Of a stretch of DNA of 64,000 nucleotides, positions 4,476 through 57,881 are shown piece after piece. The translations under genes and the position numbers were made by a program. How positions within the stretch are numbered: position 1 is the first letter of the stretch; the number at the start of each line of letters is the position of its first letter. The notes below the pieces were generated by a model. It was not told where the DNA came from. It saw nothing but the letters and a program-made list of their open reading frames with translations, and did no database searches. Origin of the DNA: Cycas panzhihuaensis (Eukaryota; Plantae; Cycadophyta); NCBI GenBank assembly GCA_023213395.1, contig CM041465.1, forward strand, positions 198,159,741-198,223,740, written 5' to 3'.

Positions 4476-5826
4476 ATAGTCGAGAGAGATCATATCCTAA
4501 ATTGGTGGGGCAGAGAGGGAGCGAGATCACCTAGCTACTAAGAGAGATCATATCCTAGTTAAGAGGGATCACCTATAGAACTAGTACGATCATTTGGTTG
4601 ACTAGATAGTTGTCAGGTCATCACGTAGCAGGACACACATGACCCCCATGATAAAGTAGAGTCCCAAGGATGAGGAGAGTGAGGCAATGACCTTGTAGAG
4701 ATACTAAAGGAGTTTAGGAGGGATGCAGTCCCCTAATAAGGGATTAGGTAGATGAGGGGATGACACCCCCTAAGAGCATGGCATCTAAGAGATTTTGTAC
4801 ACTATGTGTTTTGACAAGAAATCTTTGAACCTCTAGGGAGTTCTATCTCATGTGGTTATATGACTGTACTCCTCCCTACAAGGATTCTAGCTTCCTAGGG
4901 CATATTGTTGAGATGATGTATCATATAATTTTGATACATCCTATTACTTTATATCCATGATACTATTATTTTTGTTTGCGATGTAGCTTGTTTTGTTTCT
5001 ATGATATATAAAGATAGACATGAACATGTATGGATATGGGTATATGGATGCATGAGTGACTATGCACTTAGTTTTAATCTGATTACTACATTATGGTTTT
5101 GATTATATTATATGTAACTAATACTCATGTGCTTCCTTTTATGCAATGCGACACTCATACTAGGTACACACATACACCATGCAAATAGGAGATGGTTACG
5201 TATGAAACTAAGGAAAATCACCACATATATTCTTCAGAGAGAGCATGATGGACATGCAAAAGAAGCACCAGCGAGGGGTACATATACCCAAACAAAAGGG
5301 ATTAGGTTAGAAAGTGACTCCATGCTCAGAAGTGAATGGGGTTTGCTTACCCAACTAGGAAAAGAGAAGATCTTCCTTGGAAAGGAGATAAAGAGATGCA
5401 ACACCAATAATAAAATCTAAAGGATGGAAGGCCACTCTAAATAATCATTGCACCTTTGACTAGGGAGAATAGTAGTATGCTTAGAGTGGTAGTTTAGTCT
5501 TATTTTATAGTGAAAGAGAGGTGTGAATATTTCCACTCAGAAGTAGAAAGAATCACCCTAGGCATGGAGGTGGATGATGAAGAGTAGGCCTTGCATGGTT
5601 AGGCCTATAGGTGGAATGGGTTTGGTCAAAACCAAACTAACATGAAGGACTCGACATGTGACAACTTGCATAGTAAGGTTGAGTTTGGGTAGGATGGGCT
5701 CTAGTCCTTGATGAGGATCTATAGCAAAGAAGAAGTGCCTTTATGACTGGCTCGTCGATGTGGATGCCTACATGAAGTCACTCGGGGAGGGTGGAAAGGT
5801 GAAAGAAATGGCTAGTTCAGAACTAG

Positions 5827-8800
5827 CTACTTGGGAGCCAATGTAGAATAAAGAGAAGAGGATATATCTAATTGGGATATCTCCTTGGGTGTGTGTGAAA
5901 CTATAATGACATGCCAAGGAAGGGGTTCGTGGCCCCCACCATCTGACTCAGAATCACCCATGAAGGTTAAGTAACCATAACTACCTACACCAATAGAGGC
6001 AAACCTAACTAGGTTTGGTTTATGATAAGGCATGGGTTCCATTTGATGAAGGTTGGTCTCCTGAAAAAGGGTTCCCATGGAAGGGATAACATTCTTAGGA
6101 TTACTATCTTCACCATCGAACATAACTTGAAAGGTTGGATAAGAAGTGTGAGATAGTGGAGGCTTACGGGTGATAACTTTATCTTGTCCTTCATTGACAA
6201 ACTTAAGCTGGCCCTAATGTGAGGAGCAAATTGCTCCCATTTGGCTGAGCCATGGTCAACCCAATAGGAGGTTATAGTCTACATCGATATCAAGTATAAT
6301 AGCATCTACATAAATGGTCTTCCCTCCTAAGGTGAGTGAAAGGGAGAATGTCCCAAAGGGAGACTTCTTGGTTCCATCATATCCTTGGTATTTCCAAGGG
6401 ATAGACTCGAGAGCCACTACACCTAACTTATTAAGAATGCATACAGGCATAGCATTAACTAAGGAACCATTATTTATGATGGTCCTCTTTATGATAAAAT
6501 AAAGGGTGTCAATAGAAATGAAAATTAGGTAATGCAAAAGCTTTTCTCATTCACTAGGAGGTGGGAGATCATGAGGATTGAACGAGATAATAGGTGGTCC
6601 ATGGGAGGTAGTGCCTACAGCATGGACGAGAGCATCTTATTAGCCAAGAGATTCGAAAGCAAGAGCATGTTACTCAGGGCAACTCCTTAAGATATCCATC
6701 ATGGATATTCTGGTAGACACAGAGTGGAGCTCATCTATGATCATGAAGGACTTCCCTTTCCCGATAGGTTGGGGAAGTGCCCTTTAGAAATCATAATGAC
6801 CTAGGCAGACAAGAATGGTCTTTATGTGTGCTAGAATCTTAGAAAGTGGAGTATCTATAGAAAAGTGTGGTTGAGAAGAGGAACCCCTAATGTCCTTTTT
6901 GGCTACTTGAGACCTGGCGACAATGTGTAAAGGGGTGGTCTCAAGAATTTGAATTACTCTCTTTCCTTTATTATAGGATTAAGAGGGTGAGGAGGTTCGA
7001 TGGCAAGAACTAAGAGGAGAGGATGAATTTCTTACCCCATTTCATTTTGCTTGCATAGAAGAAGGGTTAGGAGATCATCCCGTATTCTAGTTACCCCTAT
7101 TTTGGGTGTTTTGATCCTATGCCCCATGTTTAAGGAAGGGATCCCTATAGATAGGCCAGTCTAAATTAGGCTTAGATGCCTGTCTAGAAGAGGAGTCATA
7201 AGGTAAGGCAAGTTCGGGATGCTACACCTAACATTACGAGTCCTCATGGAAGCACTCACCATAAATAGAATAATACTTTGTATCTAGGGAAGGTTTGGTC
7301 TTCCTTATTTGGGAGGAGTTGGTATTTCTATTTCTAGGAGGTGCAGCTTGAGAGGCCTGATGGGCAGGTCTATGAGAGTTTGAGGGTAAAGAAGGAGTTT
7401 GGAGCTTAAGCTTCTTCATCATATATTCGAAAGAATGTATAGTAGAAGTTACAAGATCTAGGGTCTTCTCTATTGAGTGGGTAGAAGATTTTCAAGGTTA
7501 TTAGGATCTTAGGTCACATGATGGAGAGGGTGCCTCTTGTCATTATGATGGTTTGAGAGGTTTCTTGAGATCTGATTGGATCTCAATAGCCTTAAGTACC
7601 AAGCATTTAGATATGGTAGAGTCACACATTGTTGCCTCCATTTTGAGGACTTCAACATGGACCTCAGGGCAGAGGGCATTCATGAAAAGGTCCCTCTTTA
7701 ATTCCTTGGGCAATGTAGCCTTCATTAAATGCAAAAGGTCATGAAAGTATCTCATAAAGTTATGATTCATTTCCTTGTGACCATGCTTGAGTAAGAGTAG
7801 AGATTTCATTCCACTCTCAAAAGGATGAGCTATATCAAAGTATGGATGGAATGGGTAGGGAGATGACAAAACCACTTGAGGGCATCTTCCAAAAAGGATG
7901 TGGAAAGAGTTTTATCAGAATATAATCATAAGCCCAATAATTAATGCATGCCATGGAAAAGCTCCTAACATGCTCTGTGTTATATAATATGATAACAATA
8001 TTTTGGAGGCTAAAATTTTGATAGGTTGGTAGTGTGGTTTCTCCCCCAAACTTCCACTGAGGGTTCTAAGGAGGGCGGGAGCCCCCTTTGGCTAGGGTGG
8101 TGCAGGGGGCGCGGAACGCCCCTTGCAAAGAGGGGGTTCAGGGGTGATAGCCCCCGACCCAAAAAGGTAGCACTGAAAGCATACTAAATTGCAAAGAGAA
8201 TTAGGGTTGTTGGCTTAAAAATACCCTAGATTCTATGGTCAAGATTTATGCCTTCTATGACTATATTATGTAGCCCAATTTAGGGTGTTTTTCATTATGT
8301 TGATGATGTTCGATGTATTGGATATACTATGAGGAGTTGGGTGGCTAGTTGTTATTGCTATAAGTATTCTACTATAGATTGTGTACATTTCTCCATTCTT
8401 GATAATAAAGATTAATACCTTTCTTGTGTGGATGTTTCCTTAACACACTGCTAGGCTTTTACCACATTATATTAGGTGTATATGTGATGCTTAGCTTTCT
8501 TATTCATTTTATTATATTATCTCTAGTTTAAGAACTTGCATGTTAAATTTCAGTTTTAATTCCTATAACTAGCTGCAAAATAGTTTAGATCTTGGTGGCA
8601 GTTTCAGGTTATTGGGAGCTTGTCTTCTCAATACTTTGTTAGGTCATGCGATGAGGTCTCATCAAATCTTGGTACCTCATAGGGATGAGGCAGTAAGTTT
8701 TTCCTTAGTACCTTAATAGACAAAGGGATCGACCTATAATCAACAAAAGGGAAAACCCTTGGTTGAGCTAATGGGTCGACAAAAGGAGAAGGAGGAGGTG

Positions 8801-9847
8801 GGTATGGATATCCAAATCCTCCTTGAGAGGTTTGACTATAAAAGGTACCTGGGTTCCCTCTCACTTAGTGGGAAGGAACCATTCCCATTTAAGAGGGTGT
8901 TGAAAAGGAAGTGAATAGGTAAGAGGGACCCACTCCCCCTTGAGGATATGCCCCTTGTTGAGAGGGGACTTAGGGAAAAATCCTTGAGAAGGGGAAAACC
9001 CTCCTTAAGAAGGTGTCATATACAAGATTGTACAAAAAGATAGAAGAGATAGGTTTGGAATTAGATTTTTCCTATATGGGCCACCATGGGAGGTGTAACA
9101 ATATATGGGTGGAGAGAGTCTACCCCATAGACAAGAAGGGGATTTCCCTTCCTATGTCCCAATGGTTGGGATGTGTATCTTAGGGGTAGATAAAGGGAAA
9201 GATCCCTAGATTGAGATTGATGGCATATGGGGATAGATCCCATATGACTTGAAGAAGGGCAGCAAGAGGGCCCTCTAGGTCAGGTGATAGGGGCATGGTT
9301 GGCTAACTAGGAGGATATATGCTTAATCTAATATGAGAGGTAAGTATACCTTATATAGTTCCTAGGGTATAAGGGATATATAAAGAAGAAGGGATAATAG
9401 GGGATAGCCTTATCGTAGACATTAATGTAGATTGGGAAGAAAAGGAGGTCTAGATGAAGAAGAAGGAGGCGCCATACTATGTAGGATGCGTTCTAATCAC
9501 TTTGGAGGTAGTTAGATGCTCATAGCCTAGGAGCATTATTGTAATGCTTCTACAACATCTACAAGAGGGGTTCCTACTTGCTCGTCTGAGGTGGAAGGAT
9601 CCTCATATGAAGTAGACTTCACAGGTTGATCCTCATGGGTATTCTCACTAAGGTGGTTATATCCTATGGAGGATGACACACCCATGTCATGCATGGGAAG
9701 ATGATAGAAATCTAAGTGTTCTTGGTCACTTGGATAAAGCGTAGGTTCATGACCCTCTTGGGTAGGACCTTGAAATGAGGTTGAGGTTTATGGCTAGGTC
9801 TTGGAAACATAGGCAAGATATACCTATTCTAAGGGATATCCTTCCAT
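5827..9847 (-). pseudogene. gag-protease of B (left unit), interrupted by a solo LTR
   Basis: Pro-rich N-terminus; gag core VPRFDETSSHDLTK / YFDIAHPFESGMKSLLLLKHG...DLFMNALCPEV; protease TIINNGSLVNAM...YQGYDG...DVDYNLLLG (6256-6537). Confidence 0.85.
7978..8633. mobile_element. Solo LTR (656 bp) inserted in B gag, with 5-bp TSD ctctg/ctttg
   Basis: Absent from the sister unit at ~20555. Starts TGTTAT, ends CAATA (decayed CAACA). Flanks 7973-7977 and 8634-8638 differ by one base. Confidence 0.85.
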
Positions 9848-10085
9848 GGCCAATTCAAAATCAAATAAAGGAAGGGAGGAATAAGGAGATTCTTCCAAAG
9901 TAGGAGGGAGACCTCATAGATGATAAGAAAATTGTTATATTCAAGTTCCTCCTACAATTTTGAAAGAGGTAAGGATAAAAGCAAAGAAAAGATGTTGGGG
10001 ATTTCTTAACAAATCTTGAAGGGAATAAACCAAAGGAGAAGGGCAATGCTAACACAACAGAAATTAGAGTATTCCCTTACTATGG

Positions 10086-10103
10086 TCCCTAGTATGGTCA
10101 CAA
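10086..10103 (-). promoter_or_regulatory. Primer-binding site of B (left unit)
   Basis: Minus strand ...ttcCA-c-TTGTGACCATACTAGGGA directly after the LTR end; same motif as the other PBS copies. Confidence 0.75.
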
Positions 10104-10104
10104 G

Positions 10105-13100
10105 TGGAAGTATGCCTCTAGGGGGTCACTATGGATAAGAGCACCTAATCTAACACTACAAGTATAACAGAGGCTTAAGGGTCTAAAAAAGGCATTCGTA
10201 TATCAAAACCTAGGTTTAGGAACCCACAAATAGCACTTAATGCCTTCTCCTTTATGTGGTTACCATCTTTGATTTAGATTGGTCAAGGCCATCCTCACTT
10301 TATCGAGTAGCCTAAGGGAGAGCTCTTCTATCCTTAAGGGGAAGGGGAGGAGAAGGAATGCCCTCTTCTAGAGAGGAGACAAGAGGAAAAGATAATTTCT
10401 TATGAAGTGGGGACCTAAAAGCAAGAGGAAGGCAGTGGTTGGTCAAAGGGAAAGGGGAGATTTGGGATATACAAGAGCCAAATCTAAAGGATAAGACTAT
10501 TAGACTTGTTTTAGGTTACCTAAAGGGTTTGCCTTTAGGATTTAGTCTAAATGTAGGGTTTATTGAGTTATATTAAGGGTTTGGATTGTGTCCTTTATTT
10601 TAGTTGTAAGATGATGTGGCAAAAATCAAGGTCTTAGTCTTGAGAAAAGAACACTCTCTTTTAACTTCACTCTCTTTTCCTTTTTCTACAAAAGAATGAT
10701 TCAAGGGAGGGGATAAAAGAGAGGGCAGAAATAAATGATCTATATGGATTTTTTCTTTGATGCTTTCTTTTGCTACAAAAAAAGAATTCTTTTGAATTAG
10801 ATTATGTTTCCTTAACCTTTTCCTTATGTGCATGTATACATGCAAGATGAAAAGAGGTGATGGATAGGAAAATAGGATTCTTTAGTTGTTCTATCCTTTC
10901 TTTTTCTAATGAAAATGTGTTTATTCATGCCACCTTCCTATATGCATGCAAATAAAGGAGAAAAGAATGATCCTTATTATTTTATTCTTTTCACAAAAAG
11001 GAGAGGAAGTGAAAGGACAAGAGTACATGCATATGCATATATCCTTTATATCCCTTTCCTATGAGTGAAAATGTATAAAAGGAAGGCTATAACTCATGTG
11101 CAAGCATAAATCAATTTCTTTTTAGGAAAGGGGGGAATAAAAGGAGGGAGAGAGAAGAGTTTGTGAGAAGCATATTACGAGATGTGTTGGTTGATAAAGC
11201 AATGCACCCCTTCCCTCTGTGCTTCCCTCATTCGTGGCTCCATGCTCCAAATCATGGGGCTTCCTTACGTTTCCCAAAGTATTTATAAAGCAAGGAAATC
11301 TAGAAAGAAAAAATAATGAAAAGTAGATACATAAAGCAAAAACATACCTCTTTGTTGTGGTGTGATTCTACTTACCTGGGAGGATGCCTTGAAACTCACA
11401 AGTAATAAACTAGTCTATGCATATATATAGTAGTGTGTATGCCTTATCAAGGTGAAGTTAAAGTTTATCTTGTGTGTTAACGAAGAAATAAAAAAGTGTG
11501 TTATTTTCCTTTACATACAATAAGTGTTCCTATACAAATTTTGGGAGGAAAGGGGGGGGGAGGGGTTAAAGGAGAAGAGAATGATAGCCTCATAATGGGT
11601 AGCTCCTAGCAATGAAACACCTCCCAAAGATTGGGTCCCATATGGGAAATATGAATAATGTTAAAAGGTGTAAGGAAGAAAGTGAGTGAAAGAGTTTAAG
11701 GAATGTTGCAAAAGGGTTGAAAAAGTTAGAAATAAGCTATGAAAAGGAATGGTAATGGTAAGGTACAATAGCTAACCAAACATAGCATGCATATTCAATG
11801 AGATCAGAAACTAAGCATCACAAATATCATAAAGTAACCAACATATGTGGATCACACCCTCCAAGGTTTATTAGCATGATTAGTAGGCAAGGAACGATAG
11901 AGGTTTGAGAAGAAGGGGGTTGCCCTAGGAGAGGCAGCTATGGGAGTCAAAACTCTAGCCATCTATACCTCTTTAACCTTCCTAAATTGTTTAAAACCTA
12001 GCATACTATGAGCTAGTAGAAACTTAGGGATGGACTAATAGTGGCAAAGTAGGAGGAGAGGGTTTGCCTCTCTTTTGTCGAATAAATATTAAAGAGAATA
12101 TATAGAATAGAGCAAGAAAATGGATAAAATCAGGAGAAAAATAGATCAAAGAGAGAAATAATGGAAGACAACCTACTTTTAGCCATAAAATTCACTCAAA
12201 ATAGAAATTACATTGCCACCAAGAGAGATGGTGCTTAAATACCTATTTTCCTTGGTGAAGGAGGCCTTTTTGGAGGATGAAAGAACCTTTGATCTAGGGC
12301 AACAAGCTACTGCTACTTAGCTAAGTATAAGAGGAGAGTAATCTCACTGAGAAAGGCCTGATCTAGACCTGCAAACTAGAGTTTTACCCTTATAGAACTT
12401 GGAGCAAGAGAAGGAGAAGGAGAGTAGGGGAAGAGAGCTATTTTTTATTCGTGAGAGATTCAAAATGAATTCAAAATTAGGTTTTTGTATCCTAATTACG
12501 TTTTTGAAAGAATTAGGGTTTAATATGCATGGGAAAAGACCCTCTACCACATGCCAGATTCATAATAAATGTAAATCTGGCCATTACCTGGCTGTAGTAA
12601 CTTATGGATAGTCACTTAATAGTAAACTTCACGGTACCACAAATATTGCTACAGTACTGCTAACTTTATAGCAGTGCAAAGAAAATAAAAAATGACCTAA
12701 AGAATCCCAAAAGATTAGTCTTGAGGTGTAAAAACAGAGCTTGGTGGACTTGTAAGGGTCATTTAGGGGATCTAGGTGGTGGTGGATCCTGCCAATATGA
12801 AAAAAAGGTGAAGACTACACATTAATAGTGATGTAAAAGTGTGTAAGTGGGTAAGTATATTAAGTTCCCACCATGGGGCCTACACAACAAGTTAGAAGTG
12901 AGTTAAAGTAGGCCTACAAAGTTCCATGAGTACCTGTAAACTCTAGGGAGGTGTTTTCTAGAGCTATATGGTGCCATAGGACCATGGTCCTGAGTCATCA
13001 TAGGCTGGATCACAGTCAAGTATGAAGTAGGTAAATAAACCAAGCATCAAAATAATCTATGTAACCATGTCATATTACTAGAATCATAAACATGTCTCAA

Positions 13101-13195
13101 CATGCCATCAAAGTCAACAAGGCAAGAGGTTAGGATGTATACCTATGCTTACCTGAAAGGTATCACTCCTGCCCATTCCTGGTAGCTGGGAAATA
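10105..13195 (-). repeat. Middle LTR of B (3' LTR of the right unit and 5' LTR of the left unit)
   Basis: Preceded on the minus strand by a PPT and followed by a PBS; collinear with 22051-25110. Confidence 0.85.
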
Positions 13196-13695: not shown

Positions 13696-14118
13696 CTAGG
13701 AAGGGTCATCCAGGAGAGGAAGACGATGCTCAAGGATACAGGGGGTGAGGCCATCTGCCTCAGTATTTAGGTCTTAGGAGATGTGTTGGATATCCATGGA
13801 GGAGAAGAGGGATAACAACAACCTCATAGTCAATGCGAGGGACCTTAATCGTGGGCAAGAAACCTATTAAACCTACGTTAGTTGTGATATGACGATCTAG
13901 GAGTCATGATGAAGGATGATGGGGCCATGGTAAACTTAGAGTGCATTATTAAGGGCTTCAATAATAGCTATGTATTCAGCCTCATTATTCGTAGCCTTGG
14001 GTAGGTAGACTCTAGAGTGCATGTAGTTGTTTTCAAAGGGATCACAGAGGATCTATGGGGCTGTAGAAGGTCCAGGGTTTCCACGACTACCACCATTAAT
14101 AAAGATGAGTAACATCAT
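13696..14118 (-). pseudogene. Free-standing archaeal-type RNase HI (aRH) ORF of B
   Basis: One frame of 141 codons: MMLLIFINGGSRGNPGPS...KATNNEAEYIAIIEAL...ILHHDS*IVISQL...HIS*DLNTEADGL. Only point-mutation stops, no frameshift; first catalytic Asp reads Asn. Confidence 0.9.
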
Positions 14119-15389
14119 GGTGAGAAGAGCAGAGTTTAGTTTGAATCACAAAAGGACTGGTGATGGAACTGTTGAGTTAGAGAAAGGGTAACACACTACA
14201 ATAACTCAAAATAATTGGATGTATTAGGCATGAAAGGATAAGAGAGCCCTAGAGATAAGCTACTAGGCTTGTGAAAGGCCTACCCAATAGAAAGGCAAGA
14301 ACATGCTAGTAAACATGCTCCTTCAGTGCTCTAGGGGGTTATGAAATAGCTAACGAAGGCCTGCAAGGGAGGAGGAGCTCTTCTTAGGAGCCTTGAGGGC
14401 TCAAACAAATGGAAAAAATAGATCCAAGACACTAAAATGAGCTAAAAGAGTATAAATACAAGGATGTTTTAGAACAACATGAAAAATTAGATGAATCAAC
14501 CTTCAGAGAGCTAAAGGGGTTTATTATAAATATACAAAAATGATGTAGAAAGGAGGCACTAGGAGAAAAACAAGGATCAAACCTTGAAGACAAAGAGAAT
14601 GGGGATAAAATATCAATCTTGAGGGCTGTCACATCAAAGAAAATAGAGGTAGCACCTCAGGAAGCCCCGCAAATAAAAAGGGTAAGGAGGCAAGAAAATG
14701 TTTTATTTTTGTAGGCCCCTCAAGAGATCCAATGCACTCTCACCTAAGTAGTAAGGCTTTACTGCCTTATACGAGCACACACCATGAGATTCAACCGTTA
14801 GATCAAGACGAGGAGATAGCCACTGAGACTAGGACAACAAGATGGCAATGATTAAACTTGACCTAGTAAGTGGATTGTACCCTAGTCTTTTCATTTTACC
14901 ACTTGAATTTAATGTCTCATTTTATAAATTTGGGGCCCTATAGGGGCCATGGGGATTCCCTAGAGCTTATTGGAGGCCCCAGGAGGGGGAGAACTAAGGC
15001 ATTAGGTAGACCTAGTCCTAGTGGACCAAGTTAGGCCTACCTAGACAATTTTTTTAAGATTTTTAGGGTAACCACCCCTTTTTAGAAGGGGTATCTATAG
15101 CCTCATGACATTTGTTGTGGTACTACGAAGTTTGTGGTAGGGCCCACTAAGGGTCCAAAAATATTCAGCAGGGCCCACATCAAACTTTATGGTACCACAG
15201 ATATTAATGTAGGGTAGTAAGGGGAAAAGGAAAAAAACTAATCAGACTAGATGGATTTGCCTAGTTTGTGGTGGCTCAAACCATCCAAAGAGGGAATAGG
15301 ATAAGGTAATGAGGTCTTAGTGACTCATTGACTAGTGATTTTATGCTTTGCAAGCTTTTCTCATAATTAACAACCACACGAATATTGGC

Positions 15390-17270
15390 ATGGCAATGAT
15401 GAGCTTCATTGAGATGATGACACAGTAGGAGAGGAGCACCTTGCAGTATTACAGGCTACTGAAAGTGATTAGGATGTCATAGTATGCATTAGATCAGAGG
15501 TTTCTAGTAGATATTATGTCCCATTAGGACGAGAGGAGGCATATATTCCATCTTCTATAGGTAGGGGGTGTTGCTATCATGCTTGGGGACATTAGGAGGA
15601 TCCTGGGGTTGCTAGCTAGGGGTACGCTAGTAGAGACACTGCTCATAGGGAGGCAGCTAGATTCTTTATAAGGAGTAGCCAATGGGATCGTTGAGTGGTA
15701 TTAGTACAAGTGTTGGTCCTTTATAGAGTTCCTTAGGTGAGGAAATTCATTATATTGGTTATTCTATTCCAGATATCTCAGAATCAAAATTATGGAGATA
15801 TACTTAGAGGTTGGATGATTATCATTAGACGATGTGAGACTAGGGAGAGATTTGACTGGGCTACTCTAATAGTAGCTAATATTATGGCATAGCTAGACTA
15901 GATTAGAGCAGCTAGTAGAGGAGGTTTTTCATATTACATGATGCTCTAGTGCTAGTTATTTGACAACTTTAGAGGAGTGGCTCTATTAGGAGGGGCCCAC
16001 CCTATATCAGTTAGAGCTCTGATGGTCCATCAATGGTAGACTTGATTCAGAGGTACCGAGGGCTAGGTGCATGTGAGGCATTTTGTGGCAACTACATCAT
16101 TGGATCTCCTCACTCGTATAGACTACACAGTGGACCCATACCAAGTGATCCACTAGGAGAGTGATGAGGAGGGAGGAGAGCTAGACGATAGTAAAGATGA
16201 AGATGTGGTGATGGGCCAAGGCCATCATAGCTAGCAGGAGGAGGGGCAGGGTAAGTAGGAGGAAAAGGAGCTACAAGCAGGTTTCTAGTAGCAGTTATGG
16301 CCATGGTGGCAGTGGCAGAGGTAATGATAACTACAATAGATAGAGGGGTCCCTGGTGAGGAGGGAGTAAAGGGAGGAGATGCCCTAACAACTCATGAGGT
16401 AGACAAGGAGGTAGTACTGGTAGTCAAGGAGGTAGAGGCGACAATAGAGGGAGTAATAGTAGAGGAGGAGATCATGCAAGAGGAGGCACCAACAATCGTA
16501 GGAGGTGAGACTCTCTCTTGATTCTAGCTTTAATTCATATTTGACCATTTACTACTTCCTTTGATGCCTATGTTTGGATATGGTGATGCATTTATGTATA
16601 TTTTGGACTGATACATGGTACTCATGGCTTGGAAAGAGGTGACAAGATGGCGAGGCTTCTAGAGGTAATTGTCCATGAGTTGTTCTTGTGGGTCTACGAG
16701 AAGGGACAACCTCCTATCATGGAGAGTGAGGAGCCTTGATTGGTAGGGCCACATACAACAACATTCACTCCTATGATTCAGGATAGGGACATATGGGCGG
16801 TGAAGTCCCAGGAACTCCATGTGAAGGTCAACCAGTTGTAGCATGCCTAGGATAGTCTATAGGTGGAGAGGGACTAATTGGTAGTGGAGAGGGATGCATT
16901 ACAGGGCTAGATATAAGGGTTGGAGGCCCAACTAGGAGGAACATAAGGAGATGCCCTGAGCTAGCTATAAGTTGTTGTATTGGAGGAGATACTCTATGGG
17001 GCAAAGAGGGAGTGGGATCACCTAGTAGCCGAGAGAGTTCAGATCCTAGTTGAGAGGGATTACTTGCAAGATTAGTACAACCAATTAGTTAACTAGATAG
17101 CCACCAAGTCATCACATAGCAGGATGCACATGACCACCATGAACTAGTGGAGGCCCAAGGATGAGGAGAGTGAGGCAGGGACCTCACAGAGATGCCTGAG
17201 GAGTTCAGGAGGGATGGGGTCCCCTCATAAGGGATTAGGTAGACGATGGGATGACACCCCTTAAGGGCAT
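15390..17270 (+). pseudogene. Antisense ORF of B: plant mobile domain (aminotransferase-like PMD), then a Gly/Arg-rich and acidic tract and ERD heptad-like repeats
   Basis: LDQRFLVDIMSH*DERRHIFHLL*VGGVAIMLGDIRRILGL..G (~15490-15625) and RFDWATLIVANIMA*LD*IRAASRGGFSYYMML*C*LFDNF (~15850-15970) match the PMD motifs W...HTFHLP..ITLEDV..ILGLP and Y.WG.A.LA.LY..L...LQ.W..E.F. The 3' limit is approximate. Confidence 0.8.
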
Positions 17271-25395: not shown

Positions 25396-25401
25396 TCTTT
25401 T

Positions 25402-44376: not shown

Positions 44377-44706
44377 CAATTATAACTTTGTATTATCAAT
44401 TTAGTAATATATTAATCAATATGTCCTTTGGATATATGGATCTCATGAACATATCTACCACTTATCTATAAGCATGACTAGAGCATGTCACCTTAAGTGG
44501 CATTGGAGGAGGCAGCCCACACAGATGATGTGAAATGTGACACATCCATATATTCTAATAAGAAGAAAAGATCAGAATATAAAAAACTTCTTAAGATGAA
44601 AATAAAGAGTGGTCCTTGCTCCTACCAAAAGGATTCCCTAAAGAAAGGAGAATAGAAAGGGAAAGAAGGGGAATGGTTGTGACACACAAAGCTCCCTACT
44701 AGTGAG

Positions 44707-44724
44707 TCCTCAGTATGGTTACCA
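44707..44724 (-). promoter_or_regulatory. Primer-binding site following the 3' LTR of C (second unit)
   Basis: Minus strand ...tttCA-t-TGGTAACCATACTGAGGA. Confidence 0.78.
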
Positions 44725-44725
44725 A

Positions 44726-47346
44726 TGAAACAATACTAAGGCATGGGAGAAGTGATATCATTGAAACCTAACAAATGAGCCTAGGGCAAATGTGGTAAGC
44801 TAAAAGGGAAGACAACACTCCACACCCTACCTAAGGTGTTTGGACACCTCTAGGTGCAAAAAACAAGGTAAGCAACAACCATAAGAAGTGGCTATACTAC
44901 TACCTAGGATAACCCAAATAAGAGCAGACACATGGAGGAGGTTTCAGTCCCTAATTTCCAAGGCACTTATAATGACCTAAAGAAAAGAAAGATGAAATGG
45001 ATGAATTGCACACCTATGAGTCTCTTCTACCTGGTGTATACAAAGGGAGTTTTAGCTAATACGATGCTACACCCTACGAGCTCAGGAACCCATGATATTA
45101 CAATCTTTCCTTTGTTCTTAAATCTTGCACAAGAAGGGGAAAATGAGGATGGACCTATGTGTAATGCATGTGGTATGGATTTTGGTCACTAGTTTACCAC
45201 TTTTTCTTTCTTTTTTTTTGTTGTATTTTTGTCATTTCATTTTATTTATTGTATATTTTCTTTTTTGTTTTTTTGGATGTTTATCCTAAATGCAAGAAAT
45301 AATATGTAAAACATGAGGGATGAAGAAGAGTGATATTTGAAGAAACAAAATGAGAATAAAGGAAACCTTTACTTTTCTTCTTTTCTTTTTATTTTCAAGA
45401 AAAAAAGGGATTGAGTAAGATGAGAAAATAAAAGTGTAGAAAGGGGATGATTAATAAAAGGGTACCTCTCTCTCTTTCCCTTATTTCTTTTTTACTATTT
45501 CCTATTCCCTCAACCACAATATCCTTCTCTTTTTTTTTGTCTCTTATATCTTTTCTCTTTCTTTCTTTCTATTTAAAAATGAAGTAAAACCAAATCAAAG
45601 GTTGTGGCAAGGATAAGAAGAGAAGGGATGCATACCTGTGACAATGATGTCTAATGGAGACAAATCTCATATCCTCATTGCCCATGGGACTGATTTAATG
45701 ATAAATGGCAAGGGTTCACTTACCTCCCCGTAAGATAAATATGGTAGCATTTCCACTTACTAATTTCCCTTATGACAAAATGGAAGAAAGACACAAAGAT
45801 AAAAAAAAAACAAATTCAAGAAACCCAAAGGAAACTTCAAATTAGAATAGTTGCCACTTACCTCTTCTATGGATGATTACAACCTACAATAATGATAAGC
45901 TTGTCAAACCAATAACTATTCTTCCTTCCTGCACATGGATTAGCTTTCTCTCCTAAAGGCATACAACATGCATAAATATATCACTCAATAATGAGGCAAC
46001 TAGTAATGTCATATAAACTATGGAATAAGAAAATACCACCAACAAACTAGCAATCACAAAATAAGAATAATAAAGGAGATATAGTTAAGAGCCTTAGAAT
46101 GACACCATCTTTGCTATATTATTGGTTCCCTAAGCCTTATTTAGGGGACCTCCCCATATGCTTGCATACTCATCTAACGAAAGAAGTTAGGTTTGACAAA
46201 TGAAGCAAAAAGGATAAATATCAAAAACATCCAAGATAGGGTAGCTCAATATCAAGCAAAGAAACTAGAAATATTAAGTAAAAATTTGAGCAATATGAGG
46301 TGGAGATAAGAGAAGAAATTAAAAGGACATTAGCCAACATGAATCATAAAAAATCCTCATAACATGGTAGAGGATTTGATGGAAGCGAGGAGGAAGACAA
46401 TAAATCTTAAATCTTAGGACTGGTTTACCATATCCTTTGTTGGAGAAGAGTGGCCACCATTGGCTACATAATAATCATCCTCAAGGCTTCCTTTAGCTTT
46501 TGTAGAAGTACACATTTAATTATTGCTATGCTTTGCTAAATGAGTCCTCAAATACTAGTAAATCTGGTGAAATTTTGGTAGCATCTCCCCAATAATTCCT
46601 ATCCATAATATATTTTTTGTCCACAACGTGAGAAAAATTACTCTAGAAAACTAGGGATCAATTAGGAGGCTTGAGAAGAATGGGTGCTCTAAACAAGAAA
46701 AGTCTAGGAAAAAGGGAAGATTTGGTAGTTGTTTCCACCTTCCAAGGTAGATATGAGTTACTTGGACTGATAGGGTCTGTTAGGGAGATGATTCAGGTGT
46801 ACTAATGGTAGAATGATATCAATTAAAACCAAATCTAGGTGCTATGACAATCATACCATGAATTCTTTAGTAGTACTGTGATGTTCTTAGTGGTATGACA
46901 ACATACACAGAAATCAAAATAGTACAACATAAAAAAGGAGATTTTAACTTGTTTTACTAAAGCATAGGCTGTTAAGTCTAGGGAACAAGGGTTTATGGAT
47001 GCTCACCTATCATTGGCATATGGAGATGAGGTAAAACAAGGCATAATATATAAAAGTAATCAATCAAAATAAGGGAACAAGCTACTTGTAAGCAAGAAGG
47101 CATCTATTTTTTAACTCAATAATATCAATGGAGAGACACAAGGGCCATGGACAATGTCCTACTCATGATCAGCTAAAAATAGGGGACATCGCCCAATCAA
47201 TCAAGAAAAAGTATCAAGCATCCATCTACCACATGAACCAAACACATGTAAATGAAATTAAAAGGTAGCAAGAAGGGTAGAAATTATACCTACACTTACC
47301 ATACTTAATCGATCATCCAAATTCCATTCCTAGAAGTCAGGAAATA
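44726..47346 (-). repeat. 3' (shared) LTR of C
   Basis: Bounded by the PPT (minus AAGGGGGTGA, 47347-47356) and a PBS; collinear with 55184-57881. Confidence 0.86.
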
Positions 47347-48242: not shown

Positions 48243-48686
48243 TCAATGGGCTAAGGGAGGGTTATCTACTAATGGCAAGTGGTGCTCAAGGATGAAATTA
48301 ACCAACCTATCAACCTCAATGTTAAGTCCACAGGGAATCTGATGGAAGTCAATGGAAAAGAACTAAGCCAGAAGGGATCTATCAGTCATGGCTAATAGTC
48401 TCAATTGAGGGCAAATAGAGTGGTAGACTTAGGTAAGCTAGGAGACAACAATCTAGGAATCATAGTGTAAAATAATAGAGCCATGATGAAAGTAGAGTGC
48501 ATTAATCAAAGCCTCAATGATAGTGGTGTGCTTGATCTCATTAGTAGTGGCTTCATGTAGATAGATCCCATATTGAACAAAAGTATACCCAAAGGGATCT
48601 TGAATGACCCAGCTACCAACAAAGGGCCCCAGATTCCCATGACTACCCCCATTGGTGTGAATGATCAATGCCATGGGGATATGCAA
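48243..48686 (-). pseudogene. Free-standing aRH ORF of C
   Basis: IIHTNGGSHGNLGPFVGSWVIQDP...ATTNEIKHTTIIEAL...ILHYDS*...HQIPCGLNIEVDRLVNFILEH; start and stop are in the same frame over 148 codons. Confidence 0.87.
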
Positions 48687-49372
48687 TGATAGCTTAAGAT
48701 AAAATCAATGAATAATGGGAAGGTGTAAGAATAAACAACCATCAATAAGAACTAAGGTGAGCACACAAATCTAACTAGAATGATGGAACCATTAGTCTTT
48801 GGGAACAACCAGTGACCAAACCAAAGAAACCTCCTCCAAAATCCATAAAGAGCAATAAGCTATGCTAAGTAGGGTTTGATCATGATTAAGACCATGGTGG
48901 ATCCAAGCACCTGGATCCAAACATCCTAAAATAGCCCAAACAACTAGACCTAAACTACATATCATAGATAGGGATGAGGCCATCATGCAACCTACCCCGA
49001 GAACCAAGTAGGTGGCAATAAATGTCACCTACTCAACACATACCCATATATACACATCATCATTTTTTTCTCTCGTCATCTTTTTTTTGATATGTCCTTT
49101 AAGACTTCTTTTCTCCCTTTTTTTTTGGATAGCTTCGAGAGGAGATATATAAATAAAGGCTTGAGTTGTATGAGTTAGGTGCAGTTGTATGCTAGACTAT
49201 AAAGGAACTAGGAAGAATGTTGTCATAATAATTTTTTAACATAGTAAGTTCTATGTCATAAGATCGAGCTAAAGAGGTCAAACTGCAAGGTGAAATAGGC
49301 AAGTCATGTAATAGTCTCAAGTATCATGAGTGGGGCATGCATGGAGCAGGGTCCTCTGGTAGGTGACCAAAA

Positions 49373-49655
49373 AGGACATGAGGGAAACAATCTAGGTAAC
49401 CAAGCTTAAACCATGAAAAATACCAATAAAACACCAATATCACTATAACATGCAAGAAAATATGTAGGGTAGTAAGGCTATCATGAAGTAATAGTCTCAA
49501 GTAATAGTCTCTGGGTCTAGGCAATTACTACCACCAAGGACATGAGGGAAACAATCTAGGTAACCAAGCTTAAACCGTGAAAAATCCCAATAAAACACCA
49601 ATATCACTATAACATACAAGAAAATATATAGGGTAGTAAGGCTATCATGAAGTAA
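49373..49655 (+). repeat. Local direct duplication (~120 bp repeated at ~165 bp spacing) inside C
   Basis: aaggacatgagggaaacaatctagg...ggctatcatgaagtaa at ~49373 and ~49537. Confidence 0.9.
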
Positions 49656-50276
49656 AAAGTGAGTAGTGAGCTGCAGGGATGGTGAAGACTCTGCGAGTAA
49701 CCTGGAAGTACTTGGGGGTGATAATATGGTCTAAGTGATCAATGTAGTTACCAAGATATCAAGTATGATAGCATAAGAAGATTAAATACAAGTGAGAAAT
49801 AATGAGATATGAGGGTTAAATGATATTTGACACACATAGGGCCTACATGGGTGATAATTTAAGGATTAGGATGAAAAAGGGATTCAGTGGACTATAAATA
49901 CTTATAAGAGATTAGGTGGGTGCCCCAGGGACAAAAAGAATCACCTAGGAGAAAAAGGAAAAGTATGGCTAAAGATACAGACATGCGATTTGTCATTTTG
50001 AAGGTGTAGATCATAGAGGTCTAGGGGGAGCAGGACCATCTTAGGTTAAGGTATGATTAACTTGTAGACTACATGGTAGCATGGTCCTTGGGGACACATA
50101 TGACCATGCCATCATGTTAATTACTTAGACATGAAGGTCACCCATAGGATGAGGGGAGCAAGGCCAGGCCAACAGAGCGACTAAGGATGAGCCTAGGGTG
50201 TACATGGACCCCACCAGAGCATAGGAGGGAGAGGCCATGAGATGACACTCCATGAGGGAATGAATAGATACATATG

Positions 50277-50280
<4 letters not shown>

Positions 50281-50374
<94 letters not shown>
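50281..50374. repeat. (TA)47 microsatellite
   Basis: Read directly. Confidence 0.97.
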
Positions 50375-50375
<1 letters not shown>

Positions 50376-50954
50376 TGCTCTTTGTATAGTAGAGGAGAGT
50401 TGGGCCTCCAGGGGCATAGAGCTTAGATGCATGATTATACCCCCCTATAAGGATCCCAACCTCCTATTAGGATGATACGTCCCCATCCACCATGTACTTG
50501 ACACTTTTGGATATATATAGATATTCATGGGTGCCAATTGGCACCCCATCATTTGCTTTGTATCCTTTATATATTTGTTCTATGGATGTATCTTTATACG
50601 TATGTGATATCACTCCTATGTATGCATGCACTATGCTTATGTATATTTATTTTATCATAATCTCATGTATATGGAATCATAGCTTACACACACAACATAC
50701 ATCCACATTCCACATGAAATGGTATCACACATTTGGAGATCTAGTTTACACTCATGGTGGACTCTTATGCCATCTTATTATGGAATTGTCATCATCAACA
50801 CATTAGATAGGTTTAAAAGAGAACTTAAGATGAGGTGTTATACATTAGCATAACCCTCAAGATAGGGTGATCTAGGCTTACTTCATAGCCATGGAGAGGT
50901 AATAGATGCCATTCCCCCTATTCTAAGAATGGAGGAAAGCCTGGCCTTATGGGA

Positions 50955-51190
50955 AGGGATAGTTTAGCCTCATTTCAAAGTAGATTGGTAGTTTAGGCTT
51001 GTACCATAGTAGGCTGATAATTTAAGCTCATGCTAGAGTAAGATTGGAAATTTAAGCTCATGACAAAGTAGGTTGGAACTTTAGGCTCATACTAGAGAAA
51101 ATCTATACTTTAGGCTCATATTAGAACAGGTTGGTAATTTAAGCTCATGCTGGAACAAGTTGGCAGTTTAGGCTTGTACTAGAGCAAGTT
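50955..51190 (-). repeat. 29-bp tandem array, 8 copies, minus-strand core ATGAGCCTAAACTACCAA
   Basis: TTTA anchors at 50963, 50992, 51021, 51051, 51080, 51109, 51138 and 51167. Confidence 0.9.
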
Positions 51191-51299
51191 CTCATAGCAC
51201 ACAATAAATGAGATAGGAGTAAGAGTGATTGTGGCTCAAAATTGGTCAATTTATTATGGCCACCCCAAGGAATCTCTCCTTGGAAAATGGCTTGGATAA

Positions 51300-54200
51300 G
51301 AGAGGGGGAGTGTACCCCTCTACTTTATCTTCATGGGTGTGAAGGTTTGGATGATCAAGATGGTGATTAATGGCCATCCTAGTGTTGTGGTAAGATAACC
51401 ACATCCTCAAATGATGAGATTCTTATACAAGTGAAAGAGGAGGTGGATTAGGGATTGGGGTATGATTATAAGGATTTAGTCTAAAAGAGGGGGGAATGTC
51501 AACAGAGGAAGGGATATCCTATGTCATGTTCAAATAATTAACTTGACATGGAGACTCGTCATATTCATCGTCAGACAAGGAGTCACTAAGGACCACCAAA
51601 TAACCATAACTTCTAACCCCTATATAAGAGAAACACACCAAACCATGGGAAGGGGGAGGAAGGGTTCCCTCATCATAAGGATGCACCTCATCCTTGAGTG
51701 GGTCATCCCGTTCCCCTATAGATCTAAAAATTACCTAGCATCGCTAGTGAGAAGGGTAATTAGGTGGAGGTTTACATGTTATGACTTTCATTTACCCTTG
51801 ATGGCTAAACTTAAGTTGCCCCTATCTTGAAGAGCACACTACTGCTATCTAATCAATCTAAGGCCACCATAGAAGGAGGTTGTAATTGAACTCAATGTCT
51901 AAAATGACCACATCTTCTTAGACTATTTTATCCCCCAAGGTCAAGGGAAGATTAACCATACCCAAAGGGGCTTTTTCGAACCCATCATACCATTGGAACC
52001 TCTAGGGAACTAGCTTGAGGGCTTTAATTCCTAACTCCCCAAGCATACAAAATGACATCACATTGACAAAAGATCAATTGTTGATAACATACCTCTTGAG
52101 GGTAACTTCAAGTGTTTTGATGGTAATGGTAAAAGGATAGTGCCAATATACTTATGTATCCTTTGAGGAAGGAAGATTGCATGGATCAAATATGATAAGG
52201 TTTGGCCCATGAGTAGAGGAGGTGCTAACCATATGAATTAGGGTATCGTTGAGCCCTAGGTCTTCTAACAGGAGTGCCCTTTGATTAAGACAACTCTTTA
52301 GCATGTCCATCATGGGCATCTCAGCTAAAATAGTATACAAATCCTAAATGATAGAGAATGCCTTCCCTTTCATAGTAGGTTAGGGAAGAGAACACCTAAA
52401 ATCATACCTACCCGAGTGCACATGAATAATCTTTAGGACTATAGGTATCTCAGTAGGAGGAGAGTCCCTTGAGGTTGTTGTTGTGATATAAAGGCTTCTA
52501 CAGCCTCCTTAGTAGCCTAGGACCTTGTGATGGGATACACTTGGGTGGTCTCAAGTAATTAAGGACTCTCTTGCCCTTGCTCATGGTTTGAGAGGAGGTA
52601 ATGGATTAGGTAATAGGAATCGATGGGGAGGAGTCATCGACGAGTTCCTTCCCCTTCGATTGATTAGTAGGAGGGGTCTAGGTTGGCCTTATATTCCTAT
52701 TTCATCTCATTGATTATTAAATAGGATGATTTTATTGTTCATAATTTAGGAAAAGATCTTAGTGCATAGGTTGTTCAAAGTTTAGTTTAGACTCACCCTG
52801 TGGAGATAGGTCATGAGGAGAGGCTAATTTTAGCTATTATGTCTAACACCTAAAATCATCATGGGTGCATTACCATGAACTGAGCACTACTTCTTTTTTG
52901 GTAGGGGCCTCACCCTCTTAGGTTGAGGTGCAAAATTTTCTTCGCTTTTGGCAGGAAGAGTCTAGGTAGTTTGGTGAACCTAATTATATCTATTTTGAGA
53001 TTGATATGGCTCCTATGATGCTTGAGTTGGTTGTAACTTCAAGTCATGCACCATTCACTCAAATGATGGGACAGTCAAAGTTAAGGGGTCTAAAGTCTTA
53101 TCATTCGAACTAACAGGAGGCTTTGACATTTATTAATGAGTTCCCCTATTCTCACATGAAGAAGGTAGTGCCTTATAATGTTCTAAATTCTTTGTGACCT
53201 TCTTGAGGCTAGCTTGGATCTTAATAGATTGAAGTGATAAGCACTTGGCAATGGAAGAATTGCAAGTAGTCACCCCCTTTTTGATAACCTGGGCATTAAC
53301 TTCAAGTCTTAGGGCATCAACAAAAATGTTCCTCTTCAATTCCTTAGGTAGCATGGCCTTGGAAGAATGGAGGTCATGGAATTACTACATGAAATCATGA
53401 TTCATTTCATCATGACCTTGCTTTAAGGACAACAATGCTTTAACTCCATTTTTGAAGGGATGAGCCACATTAAAATAGTTGACAAAACTATCAACTAATT
53501 ATTGTAGCATGGAAATTAAATATGATAGTAACTGGTAAAACCACTTCAAGGCATCACCTTGAAGTGAATAAGGGAAAAGCTTTATTAATATATAATCATA
53601 GGACCAATAATCGATGTATGCCATGGTAAAATCCCTAACATGATTGGTCAGGTCTTGAGAGGAAGTGCCATCAAATTTAGGCACTTTTGGGGGATGTGGG
53701 GGAAAGTTAGTTTAGAGGGCCCCAAATACAAGTAGGTTAGACCTATAATCTATGAAAGGTTGTCCTCTAGGTTGGGCCAATAGATTAGGAGGGGGATGGA
53801 AGGATCCTCCTTGCAGAAAGTCACTACTCATCTTAACTGTATGAGTAGGGGAAGGGTTGGGCAGATAGCCTTGATATGCAACATCTCTAAATTGGGATGA
53901 TTATGGGGGTGGTCCTTTAAGTTAAGAGGAGGAGTAGGAAGGGCATGGAGGAGGTCGAGAATGCCTAGGTCCACCCCTTATATATGGATAATGATGAGGT
54001 TGGGCATCGTAAGTTATACTACGAGGTGCAGATGGGTGAGAAAAGGGAAGGATTCCCTAGAGGGAAACATCTTATAAAGATGGAAATGTTGATTGAGTAG
54101 GGGGAGGAGGCAAAGGATTTTACCCAAATGGTCCCCTAATAGGTAGGGCTACTCCATAAGGGTGGAGTGGATCAACCCTATAAGTAAGAAGGGGGTTAGA

Positions 54201-54988
54201 ACCCCCATGCCTCTAGGGTAATGATGTGTAACCTAGGGGCATGTATAAAGAGGGATCTGGCATTCAAGGATATAGATGATTGAGAGGCATACTTGATTGC
54301 CCTAGGTAATGAGGATGAGTAGAAGTTATATGTAAAGGTAAGAGGTGTAATAAGGTGGGCGGATAAATGAAAGAATGAATAGGGGTTATGGTCACTTTAT
54401 TACATGGAGGAGGAGCATCGTGAATTGGCTCACCTTTGGTCAATAAAGATTGAGATGCATGAGCCACTAGAGTAGTATCAGATGAAATAGAAGGTAAAGT
54501 ATAAGCAACAAATGATAGAGGGATGGCTAGAGAAGTTGTAGAAGAAGTTGTAAGGAACTGTTACAACCACCTAGGAGGAGGTTGGCTAGTGACCGTTTCA
54601 AAATGCTTCCTCAATGCTTCAACTAAATTACTAGGAGTAGTATGATTAGGGTTAAGGGAGGCCAAAGGCTTTCTTTCATGACCAGGATAAGAAGGAAAAT
54701 CATTGGTTATATGTTCATGATGTAATGAAGGATCATGGAGATGGGTTTCCTCATGGGAATAAGAATAAGGATGAATAATATTCCCTTCTTCTTGAGGAGG
54801 GTCTCAATGAAAGGGGTTATCACCTATGTGGGCAAGACCGTGATAAGGGTAGGGGGCTTCACCTTGAGGTCAATCATGTGCATAGGGTTGGTTAGCCTAC
54901 CCTTTAAGATATTCCTTTATTAATGACTCTTGGTCACTCAAATCAATGAAGGTGTAGGAGGTAGGAATGTGTAAAGAAGGTAGTCCAT
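51300..54988 (-). pseudogene. gag-protease of C
   Basis: PKFDGTSSQDLTNHVRDF...KLFPYSLQGDALKWFYQL (53499-53684); NIFVDALRLEV; protease HYPFTITI...VINN*SFVNVM...YDG...FNYNLLL (~51870-52145). Limits are approximate. Confidence 0.87.
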
Positions 54989-55183: not shown

Positions 55184-57881
55184 TGAAACGATCCTAAGGC
55201 ATGGGAGAATCACTATTGTCAAAACCTAACAAATGAGCCTAGGGTAAATGTGGTAAGCTAAAAGGGAAGACAACACTCTATACACTACCTAAGGTGTTCA
55301 TGTACCTCTTAGATGCAAAAAATAGGGTAAGTGGCAACCACAAGAAGTAATTATACTACAACTTAAGGCAACCCAAATAAGAACAAACATATGGAGAAGG
55401 TTTCACTCCCTAATTTCTAAGGCATGTATAATGATCTAAAGAAAAGAAAGGTTAAATGGATGAATCAAACACCTTTGAGTCTCTTCTATCTAGTGTATGC
55501 AAAGGCAGTTTTAGCTAATAGGATGTTACACCCTATGAGTTCAAGAACCCATGATGTTATAATCTTTCCTTTGTTCTTAAATCTTGCATAAGAAAGGGAA
55601 AATAAGGATGGACCTATTTGCAATGTGTGTGGTAGGGATTTTGGTCGCTAGTTTAGCACTTTTGCTCCCTTTTTTTTATTGTTGTTTTTTTCATTTCATT
55701 TTATTTGTTGTATATTTCCCTTTTTTTAATTTTTGGAGGTTTGTCCTAAATGCAAGTAATAATATGTAAAAAGTAAGAGATGAAGAAGAATGATATTTGA
55801 AGAAACAAAATGAGAATGAAGGAAACCTTTACTTTTCTTTTTTTTGGGGAAAAAAAGAGGATTGAGTAAGATGAGAAAATAAAAGTGCAGAAAGGGGATG
55901 ATTAATTAAAGGGTGCCTCTTTATCTTCTTTCTTTTTTATCATTTCCTACTCCCTCAACCCCAATATCCTTCTTCTCTTCTTTTTTGTCTCTTATATCTT
56001 TTCTCTTTTGTTTTTTTGAAAATGAAGCGAAACCAAATCAAAGGTTGTGGTAAGGATAAGAAGAGAAGGGATGCATACCTGTGACAACGATGTTTGATGG
56101 AGATAAATATCATGTCCTCATTGGCCATATGACTAATTTGATGACGAATGTAGGGGGTTCACTTACCTCCCCTTGAGAGAAATTCGATAGCATTTCCTCT
56201 TACTGGTTTCCCTTATGATAAAAAGTTAGAAAGATATAAAATTGAAAAAAGAGATAAGAAACCCAAAGGAAACCTTAAATAAGAACCATTGCCACTTAGC
56301 TCTTCTATGGACGGTTGTAACCAACAATAATGGTAAGCTCCTTTATGCAAATCTTGTCAAACCAACAAGTATTCTTCCTTACTGCACATAGATTAGCTTT
56401 CTCTCGTAATGGCATACAACATGAATAAATATATCACTCAATAATGAGGCAACTAGTAATGTCATATAAATAATGAAATAAGAAAATACCACCTACAAAC
56501 TAGCAATCAAAAAATAAGAATAGTAAAGGAGATATGGTTAAGATCCTCAGAATGGCATTGTCTCTCCTATATCATTAGTTTCCTAAGCCTTACTTAGGAG
56601 ACCTCCCTATATGCTTGCACACTCATCCAACAAGCAGAATTGGATTTGATATATGGAGTAAGGAGGGTGAATATCATTAACATTTAACTTGGAATAACTC
56701 AATATTATGTAAAGAAAGTAAAGCATCAAGTAAAAATCTAAGCAATATCTAGTGGAGATAAGAAAAGAAATTAAGGAAACATTAGCCAACCTCAATCATC
56801 GAAACATCCTCACAACATGGTAGAGAATGTGATGGAAATGAGGAGAAAGATAACAAATCCTAGGCTTCAAAGTGGTGTACCATATCCCTTTGTTGGAGAA
56901 AAGTGGCCATTAGCTACACAGTAATCATTCCTCAAGGGCTCCTTCAACTACTACAGAAGCATCTCTCCAATCTTTATAATATTTACTAGATGAATCCCCA
57001 AATGCTAGCAAATCTAGCAAAATTTTGGTAGCATCTCCCCATCAATTTCTTCCTACAAATGATCACCCCTCTTCCCTCTAAAAAATATTTTGGTTTTTTA
57101 ACTGAAAACAAGGGTAAGGGGTGAGTGGTGTCCTACCCACAATGTGGGGGAAACCACTTTAGAAAACCAGGGATGAATTGAGAGGTTTAAGTAGAATGGG
57201 TGCTTTAAACAAGAAAAGTATAGGAAAAGTAGAAGATTTGGGGCTTGTTTTAGGCCTCAAATGTAGATATGAGTTGCCTAGACTAATAGGGTCTATCAAG
57301 GAGGTGATCTAGGTGCATTTATAGCAGACTAATAGTAATTAAAACTAAATTTGAGCACTATGAAAGTCATATCATGAATTCTTTAGTGATACTATAAAGA
57401 TATTCGTAGTACCATAAAGTTCTAAGAAGTATAATAATATATATAGAAATCAAAGTAGTGTGATATCAAAAAGGAGATTTTAACTTATTTTATTGAATAA
57501 TAGGCTATTAAGTCTAGGAATAAGGGTCTGTGGATGCTCATCTATCATTGATAGATGGAGACAAGGCAAAACAAGGCATAATGTGCAAAAATAATCAATC
57601 AAAATGAGGGAATGAGCTAGTTGCAAGTAGGGAGGTATCCATTTTCTAACTCTATAATACTAATGGAGAGACATAAGGACCATGGGCAATGTCCCGCTTA
57701 TCATTGATTGGAAATAGGGGACATGGCCTAATTGATCAAGCAAAAGTATCACACATCCATCCACCACATGAACCAAATGAATGTAAATGAAACAAAAAGG
57801 TAGCAAAAAGGATAGAAATTATACCTGCACTTACCATACTCAACTGATCATCCAAATCCCATTCCTAGAAGCTAAGAAACA
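55184..57881 (-). repeat. 5' LTR of C
   Basis: Minus strand starts TGTTTC at 57881 and ends CA at 55184. Confidence 0.88.

Follow-up and report, generated by a model that had tools for sequence, protein, structure and literature searches.

Can a retrotransposon family that has lost its reverse transcriptase (RT) still gain from an RNase H of its own? The question is raised by a stretch of 64,000 nucleotides from Cycas panzhihuaensis (GenBank assembly GCA_023213395.1, contig CM041465.1, positions 198,159,741 to 198,223,740 of the forward strand), referred to here as the window. It is an old nest of plant long terminal repeat (LTR) retrotransposons with a GC content of 27-47%. Within it lie a complete element of the Tat lineage (D) and two insertions, B and C, that carry gag and protease (PR) without RT, its RNase H (RH) or integrase (INT); all three possess an additional RNase H of presumed archaeal type (aRH) in an open reading frame (ORF) of its own. 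Our favoured explanation, held with moderate confidence, is that B and C represent pol-less TatIII families which produce Gag-PR particles and solo aRH themselves and take RT and INT from complete TatIII elements that use the same primer. The D type and Gag-Pro dependants as such are already known; what is new is a solo RNase H kept in two deeply diverged families without RT.

Structure of the three elements

No frame in the window stays free of stops beyond 142 aa; all ORFs are dead, and the broken genes were translated with X at stop positions. D comprises the following features (PBS stands for primer-binding site, PPT for polypurine tract):

25111..25399, plus strand: remnant of the D 5' LTR, its last ~290 bp; 78% match to 40017-40308
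25402..25420, plus strand: D PBS
26600..32206, plus strand: D gag-PR-linker-RT-RH-INT, with stops and frameshifts throughout
33203..33775, plus strand: D solo aRH ORF; Pfam RVT_3 3e-8; starts 1 kb past the INT stop, outside pol
35600..36550, minus strand: D antisense ORF, PMD-like (label inferred), homologous to the B antisense ORF
37995..40305, plus strand: D 3' LTR, 2.3 kb; begins TGTTTC downstream of a G-rich PPT

The first-pass annotation had credited D with a full gag-pol region, and Pfam matches to Retrotrans_gag, RVT_1 (2.6e-7), RT_RNaseH_2 (3e-18), Integrase_H2C2 (8.5e-6), rve and SH3_Tf2-1 agree with this. The domains follow the gypsy order PR-RT-RH-INT, with the YLDD motif of RT at 30118 and the INT stop near 32205. 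B inserted into the 5' LTR, the remainder of which was lost. By its layout, D can be assigned to the gymnosperm 'post-integrase' type of Tat elements (TatIII, structure #3), as a complete but decayed copy; this layout has already been published. The first 56 codons of its aRH are present as a tandem duplicate at 33219-33564 (168 bp, detected by TRF), and with a Kimura two-parameter distance (K2P) of 0.16 this duplication has about the age of the insertions.

Each of the two pol-less insertions is a cut tandem of the form LTR-internal-LTR-PBS-partial internal (4476-25110 and 44507-57881), with an exact LTR start on one side and a broken end on the other. B and C alike were inserted into LTR sequence of D, about 290 (B) and 33 bp (C) from its 3' end. 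B is a tandem LTR-internal-LTR-internal on the minus strand, cut at 4476; its first unit, B1, measures about 15 kb:

22052..25110, minus strand: B 5' LTR, 3.06 kb; begins TATTTC; PBS next to it at 22049-22032
18300..21130, minus strand: B1 gag-PR ORF and post-PR tail; Retrotrans_gag 0.0024; RT absent behind
15340..16990, plus strand: PMD-like antisense ORF of B1 (tentative label), with frameshifts; its end was set by eye
13700..14118, minus strand: B1 solo aRH ORF with its own ATG; Pfam RVT_3 2.7e-10, RNase_H 3.6e-5
10105..13195, minus strand: second LTR of B, PPT before it and PBS after it
4476..10104, minus strand: second internal unit, B2 (leader, gag-PR, tail, non-coding), 80% to B1

The order behind the gag-PR tail of B1 is non-coding DNA, antisense ORF, aRH, PPT and LTR. 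The gag of B2 contains a 650-bp insertion (7975-8623) with a GC-rich repeat motif, which by its likeness may be the solo LTR of another family. C, of about 13 kb, has a PPT between its aRH and its 3' LTR:

55185..57881, minus strand: C 5' LTR, 2.7 kb; begins TGTTTC; PBS next to it at 55182-55165
51200..54700, minus strand: C gag-PR and post-PR tail, in a single frame over 53999-51200; RT absent behind
48750..51200, no strand: C non-coding interior with 29-bp tandem repeats, (AT)n and a 126-bp duplication
48260..48674, minus strand: C solo aRH ORF with its own ATG; 50% identity to the B1 aRH; Pfam RVT_3 only 0.04
44507..47346, minus strand: C 3' LTR (47346-44727), then another PBS and a leader stretch of 220 bp (tandem cut here)

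About six of the 29-bp repeats follow directly on the gag-PR tail (50979-51190), and the number of units varies among the public contigs described below.

B and C lack RT, RH and INT

As the first-pass annotation had noticed, no trace of the polymerase region could be found in B or C. The RT, RH, INT and PR-RT linker of D and the RT of a further element, A, gave no tblastn match to B1, B2 or C at E<=0.05; as a positive control, the D RT recovered the RT of A, which is 26% identical, at 2e-12. No RT, RH or INT family was detected between PR and PPT in the frames scanned with Pfam (for B1, 13200-21000 on the minus and 15000-17100 on the plus strand; for B2, 4476-6200 on the minus strand; for C, 47350-51200 on both strands). 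The gag and PR of B and C are homologous to those of D, as had been proposed, and with gag and protease present and RT and INT missing both elements have the domain content of semi-autonomous Gag-Pro elements of the Sabrina/WHAM type. The 1.7 kb that follow PR are colinear in the two B units; therefore, pol was already missing before B inserted. A simple deletion of D was rejected as the origin of B, since the gene order differs and protein identity is 35-43%.

The solo RNase H is conserved between B and C

A separate aRH ORF in all three elements, another of the first-pass claims, holds: besides the Pfam matches listed above, for which RVT_3 is the best family, the three copies recover each other in tblastn searches (B-C 5e-30, D-C 3e-17, D-B 7e-15). 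In B and C this ORF is found close to the PPT, in D 1 kb past INT. A methionine stands 6-7 codons ahead of the first catalytic position in B, C and three relatives, P0011, P0015 and P0062, which fits a solo ORF. The DEDD core is partly mutated in the window copies.

We compared the proportions of nonsynonymous and synonymous differences (pN/pS) between B and C. The ratio is 0.29 (0.22-0.37) for gag, 0.45 (0.35-0.56) for PR and 0.35 (0.27-0.44) for aRH at a pS of 0.71-0.81, values that the choice of alignable segments biases downwards and saturation biases upwards. The aRH is thus as conserved as the protease between B and C, with synonymous sites saturated, and a neutral aRH would not stay 50% identical at this synonymous distance. 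The ratio cannot separate selection that acted before the loss of pol from selection that acted after it.

In a phylogenetic tree of aRH sequences (30/33 short representatives plus seven focal rows), B, C, D and three relatives known from fragments form one group (support 96/86). It is adjoined (98/94) by P0005, an intact-looking RNase H of 142 aa encoded on a 563-bp contig. Intact relatives of the C gag-PR were not present among 7407 candidates (0/7407), and metagenome scans with the PR and gag alignments gave 310 and 303 pattern matches, respectively, none of which was confirmed.

B and C have more in common with each other than with D

Common terminal signals of B, C and D had been noted in the first-pass annotation. 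The common PBS stands: related 18-nt sites follow the 5' LTR remnant of D, each of the two LTRs in B and in C, and an additional LTR, E (six sites within 4 mismatches), and the sites of B1 and D are identical at 16/16 positions. The common LTR start, given as TGTTTC, is exact in two of the five LTR starts of B, C and D (C 5' and D 3') and reads TATTTC in the other three. B and C have T(G/A)TTTC in common with D, with 8-10/23 bases matching over the longer start, compared to 16-18/23 between B and C. Likewise, the G-rich type of the PPT is common to all three elements, but the extended motif can be aligned between B and C only (21/24).

The coding regions give the same picture. The post-PR tail is homologous between B and C (z 5.8 and 8.4), compared to a best value of z 2.9 against the D linker (45 frame pairs), and B-C identity exceeds the identity to D in both gag (59% vs 43%) and aRH (50% vs 33%). 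By these measures, B and C resemble one another more than either resembles D. Gene order differs as well, with the antisense ORF before the aRH in B and after it in D.

B and C are repeated families

Of ten public runs listed, six contained 8-15% of the sampled words, and contigs from four of these (drawn from four studies with three organism labels, each run represented to about 46-47%; X5-X10 not among them) were compared with positions 13200-33190 and 50390-57881, the aRH side of C (47348-50389) lying outside. For both stretches 30/30 bins were covered in 4/4 runs. Single-site letter counts come from the 40 best-supported of 2355 rows for the first stretch and of 993 for the second. Within these, 2-47 contigs per site carry a shared letter that differs from the window in the non-coding interior of B (27-47 at 17206, 7-26 at 17742), 8-29 do so at single sites behind PR in C, and 4-18 at the non-coding D sites 25466, 25988 and 29141. 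B and C are repeated families, and the single-copy state, which by the first-pass annotation would have refuted its idea, is not borne out.

In C, summed contig depth, which we did not take as copy number, shows no upward jump between the non-coding tail (100-357) and PR (169-676). PR and the tail are bridged by one contig of 82% identity (X2 record 10, 51398-51950), and further diverged contigs cover 51269-51624, 50707-50997 and 50594-50980; among the listed pieces, 50997-51269 is bridged only by 95%-identical contigs, possibly from the same locus. No loose end at the post-PR junction of C was found among the 24 listed.

The LTR-pair distances of B, C and D overlap, with one pair compared per element: K2P is 0.175 +/- 0.009 for B, 0.21 +/- 0.011 for C and 0.243 +/- 0.034 for D, where only 283 sites were available. 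The D copy is at least as old as B and C, because both sit in its LTR sequence. This overlap is compatible with a partnership but is no proof of it.

A proposed mechanism and its weak points

From these findings we infer a single loss of pol, a borrowing of RT and INT, and a need for the aRH. Pol was probably lost once, in the ancestor of B and C. Their RNAs would be packaged in their own Gag-PR particles, with RT and integrase supplied by a complete 'post-integrase' Tat element of D's clade, and the solo aRH would then have been retained by selection in the pol-less lineage. In all aRH-bearing Tat structures the native RH is degraded (PMC10508981). Because the native RH is degenerate and active RNase H comes from an ORF of its own, a borrowed Pol would not automatically bring RNase H along; therefore, an RNA supplying its own aRH would gain. 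The helper is probably a TatIII family with the same PBS and not necessarily that of D. The trans-mobilization by D-type elements put forward in the first-pass annotation is thus plausible at the level of the clade, whereas singling out D goes beyond what it has in common with B and C.

A bolder version, which we advance tentatively from the sequence comparisons, is that B and C belong to an ancient RT-less branch of gymnosperm Tat elements in which a working solo RNase H would have been selected until synonymous saturation. Replication would then be split, the dependant giving capsid, protease and RNase H and the helper only polymerase and integrase. If true, this would show that the solo aRH works apart from RT and that its supply is limiting.

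Several observations weigh against the borrowing of RT and INT by an old pol-less lineage. The link between D and B/C consists of the PBS and 5-6 terminal bases only, and the aRH tree does not separate B and C from D, which forms a long branch within the group. The diagnostic arginine position is mutated in all three aRH copies of the window. A pN/pS below 1 between B and C would also be expected if each had recently lost pol from its own autonomous parent, and the selection signal between B1 and B2 is mixed (PR 0.97, gag 0.52). Moreover, B1 and B2 represent a single event: interior K2P is 0.20-0.21, and since the transversion distance is equal in LTR and interior (0.041-0.050), we rejected the view that they are independent copies. 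No contig spans a whole B or C element. Finally, summed depth over the gag and PR cores of B reaches 11,000-28,000, compared to 220-1,400 over the B interior, which points to a large pool of related B-like gag-PR elements; some members of this pool may be autonomous.

Alternative explanations

The strongest alternative, although we consider it unlikely, accepts that B and C are non-autonomous but has each of them lose pol separately, shortly before its burst. The aRH and antisense ORF would then be passengers near the 3' cis signals, and their conservation would reflect selection in the autonomous parents. The different internal layouts (antisense ORF before aRH in B, none in C) and the large pool of B-like gag-PR sequence speak for this view, as do the recently amplified, defective Tat/Retand clusters keeping a 3' antisense ORF that are described in PMC11963269 (10/63). 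On the other hand, the gag-PR ORFs of B and C end in the same homologous tail, which is absent from D, the aRH was kept in both although the unrelated sequence around it amounts to about 1.5 kb in B and 2.5 kb in C, and the C junction behind PR shows the lack of loose ends mentioned above.

Very unlikely, in our view, are B and C as local deletion products of autonomous elements, with the coverage stemming from complete family members. The contigs are short and the nest is indeed old and rearranged, with truncations at 4476 and 44507 and a 4.2-kb duplication. But the colinearity of the two B units makes the loss older than the insertion, neither B nor C retains a trace of the D PR-RT linker or RT, and diverged contigs in C extend from PR into the tail and also lie over the non-coding part that follows. 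That B and C would also act as helpers, supplying Gag, protease and aRH to complete elements by analogy with wheat Wilma, Sabrina and WHAM (precedent in PMC9744471), is the least probable of all: within 13200-33190 the heaviest coverage falls on B-like gag and PR, but summed contig depth is not copy number and D has its own gag, PR and aRH.

Relation to known systems

The gymnosperm lineage III was described with an aRH that closes Pol and with a PMD ORF in antisense orientation (PMC4408406), and TatIII with the aRH after INT (PMC6317226). Structure #3, with the aRH as a separate ORF in conifers, Cycas and Ginkgo, is placed 'upstream of pol' in the text of PMC10508981, which states how such an ORF works as an open question; a 2026 paper places the 'post-integrase' solo aRH after INT in a survey that begins from RT (PMC13468544). 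D resembles TatIII/structure #3 (clusters Tat H and I; Pinaceae, Cycas, Ginkgo) in its aRH after INT, its antisense 3' ORF and its long LTRs. B and C differ from it by the absence of RT-RH-INT, and B also by the antisense ORF lying before the aRH. Elements of the B/C type would not be listed in the two later surveys (PMC10508981, PMC13468544), because these begin from or cluster on the RT domain.

A close parallel to the dependence of B and C is found in wheat, where RLG_Sabrina_SA and RLG_WHAM retain Gag-Pro and depend on RLG_Wilma (PMC9744471). They are likewise high-copy gypsy elements with Gag-protease and without RT/INT, two dependants of one helper, with PBS and LTR terminus common to the helper despite little homology. 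Unlike for B and C, no RNase H is mentioned in the main text of that paper, and the wheat partnership was tested by age and subfamily structure, compared to one LTR pair each here. Non-autonomous elements with gag or gag and protease also include TR-GAG (PMC4350172) and 29 GAG/PROT families of sugar beet (PMC13570524). TR-GAG elements are smaller than 4 kb and were picked by their lack of protease, RT, RNase H and INT, which sets them apart from B and C with their 13-15 kb, protease and aRH. The defective Retand clusters (10/63; PMC11963269) are similar in being amplified Tat elements that lack some pol domains and keep an antisense 3' ORF, but have the aRH inside pol and TRP28 as extra ORF. 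A soybean pair of an autonomous and a non-autonomous Tat element is cited in PMC4408406.

The novelty expected in the first-pass annotation therefore has to be narrowed. For gymnosperm TatIII, both a separate aRH and a PMD ORF in antisense are already in print, whereas we found no description of RT-less elements retaining an aRH in the literature searched, supplements and subscription journals lying outside the search. Such families offer a natural experiment on the purpose of the solo aRH: selection on it within pol-less families would show a function apart from the element's own RT. Since RT-seeded surveys miss them, they may make up an uncounted share of giant gymnosperm genomes.

The antisense ORF and its PMD label

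The antisense ORFs of B and D, described as PMD genes in the first-pass annotation, are homologous over two colinear blocks (z 7.1 and 16.7; 0/300 shuffles; 2/9 frame pairs). This homology places the D ORF at 35600-36550, and a PMD-like ORF initially considered at 34700-35200 was rejected. For C, 72 frame pairs were compared without a convincing match; the highest z values, 4.1 and 4.7, belong to short or low-complexity stretches. PMD (PF10536) gave no Pfam match in the antisense frames of B and D, neither at E<=0.05 nor at E<=1, and protein searches with the B antisense frame and with the B/D alignment returned no PMD match either. The label, confirmed by no tool, is our assumption from the published position and a likeness in motifs. 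This ORF is probably dispensable cargo, kept in B and absent from C. The function of antisense ORFs in LTR elements is called unknown in PMC7264820.

Neighbouring elements

Next to the broken end of B2, positions 3000-4475 belong to a different gypsy element (RVP_2 8e-7, RVT_1 1e-13), which is interrupted inside its RT. C is flanked by a direct duplication of 4.2 kb (40275-44507 and 57884-62240). Its transversion distance of 0.048 equals that of the C LTR pair (0.047), and therefore the duplication may have arisen together with the C insertion, for example by one-ended integration or by an exchange between empty and filled alleles. The duplicated sequence includes LTR E (40915-43384, with a copy near 58620-61070), whose start resembles that of D (18/23 bases) and which has the same PBS after it; a search for a coding region behind this LTR found none. 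Positions 40309-40914 gave no match in the Pfam scan. Judged by eye from its motifs, this segment is presumably a decayed copia RT/RNase H, and it is likely the target into which D and E inserted.

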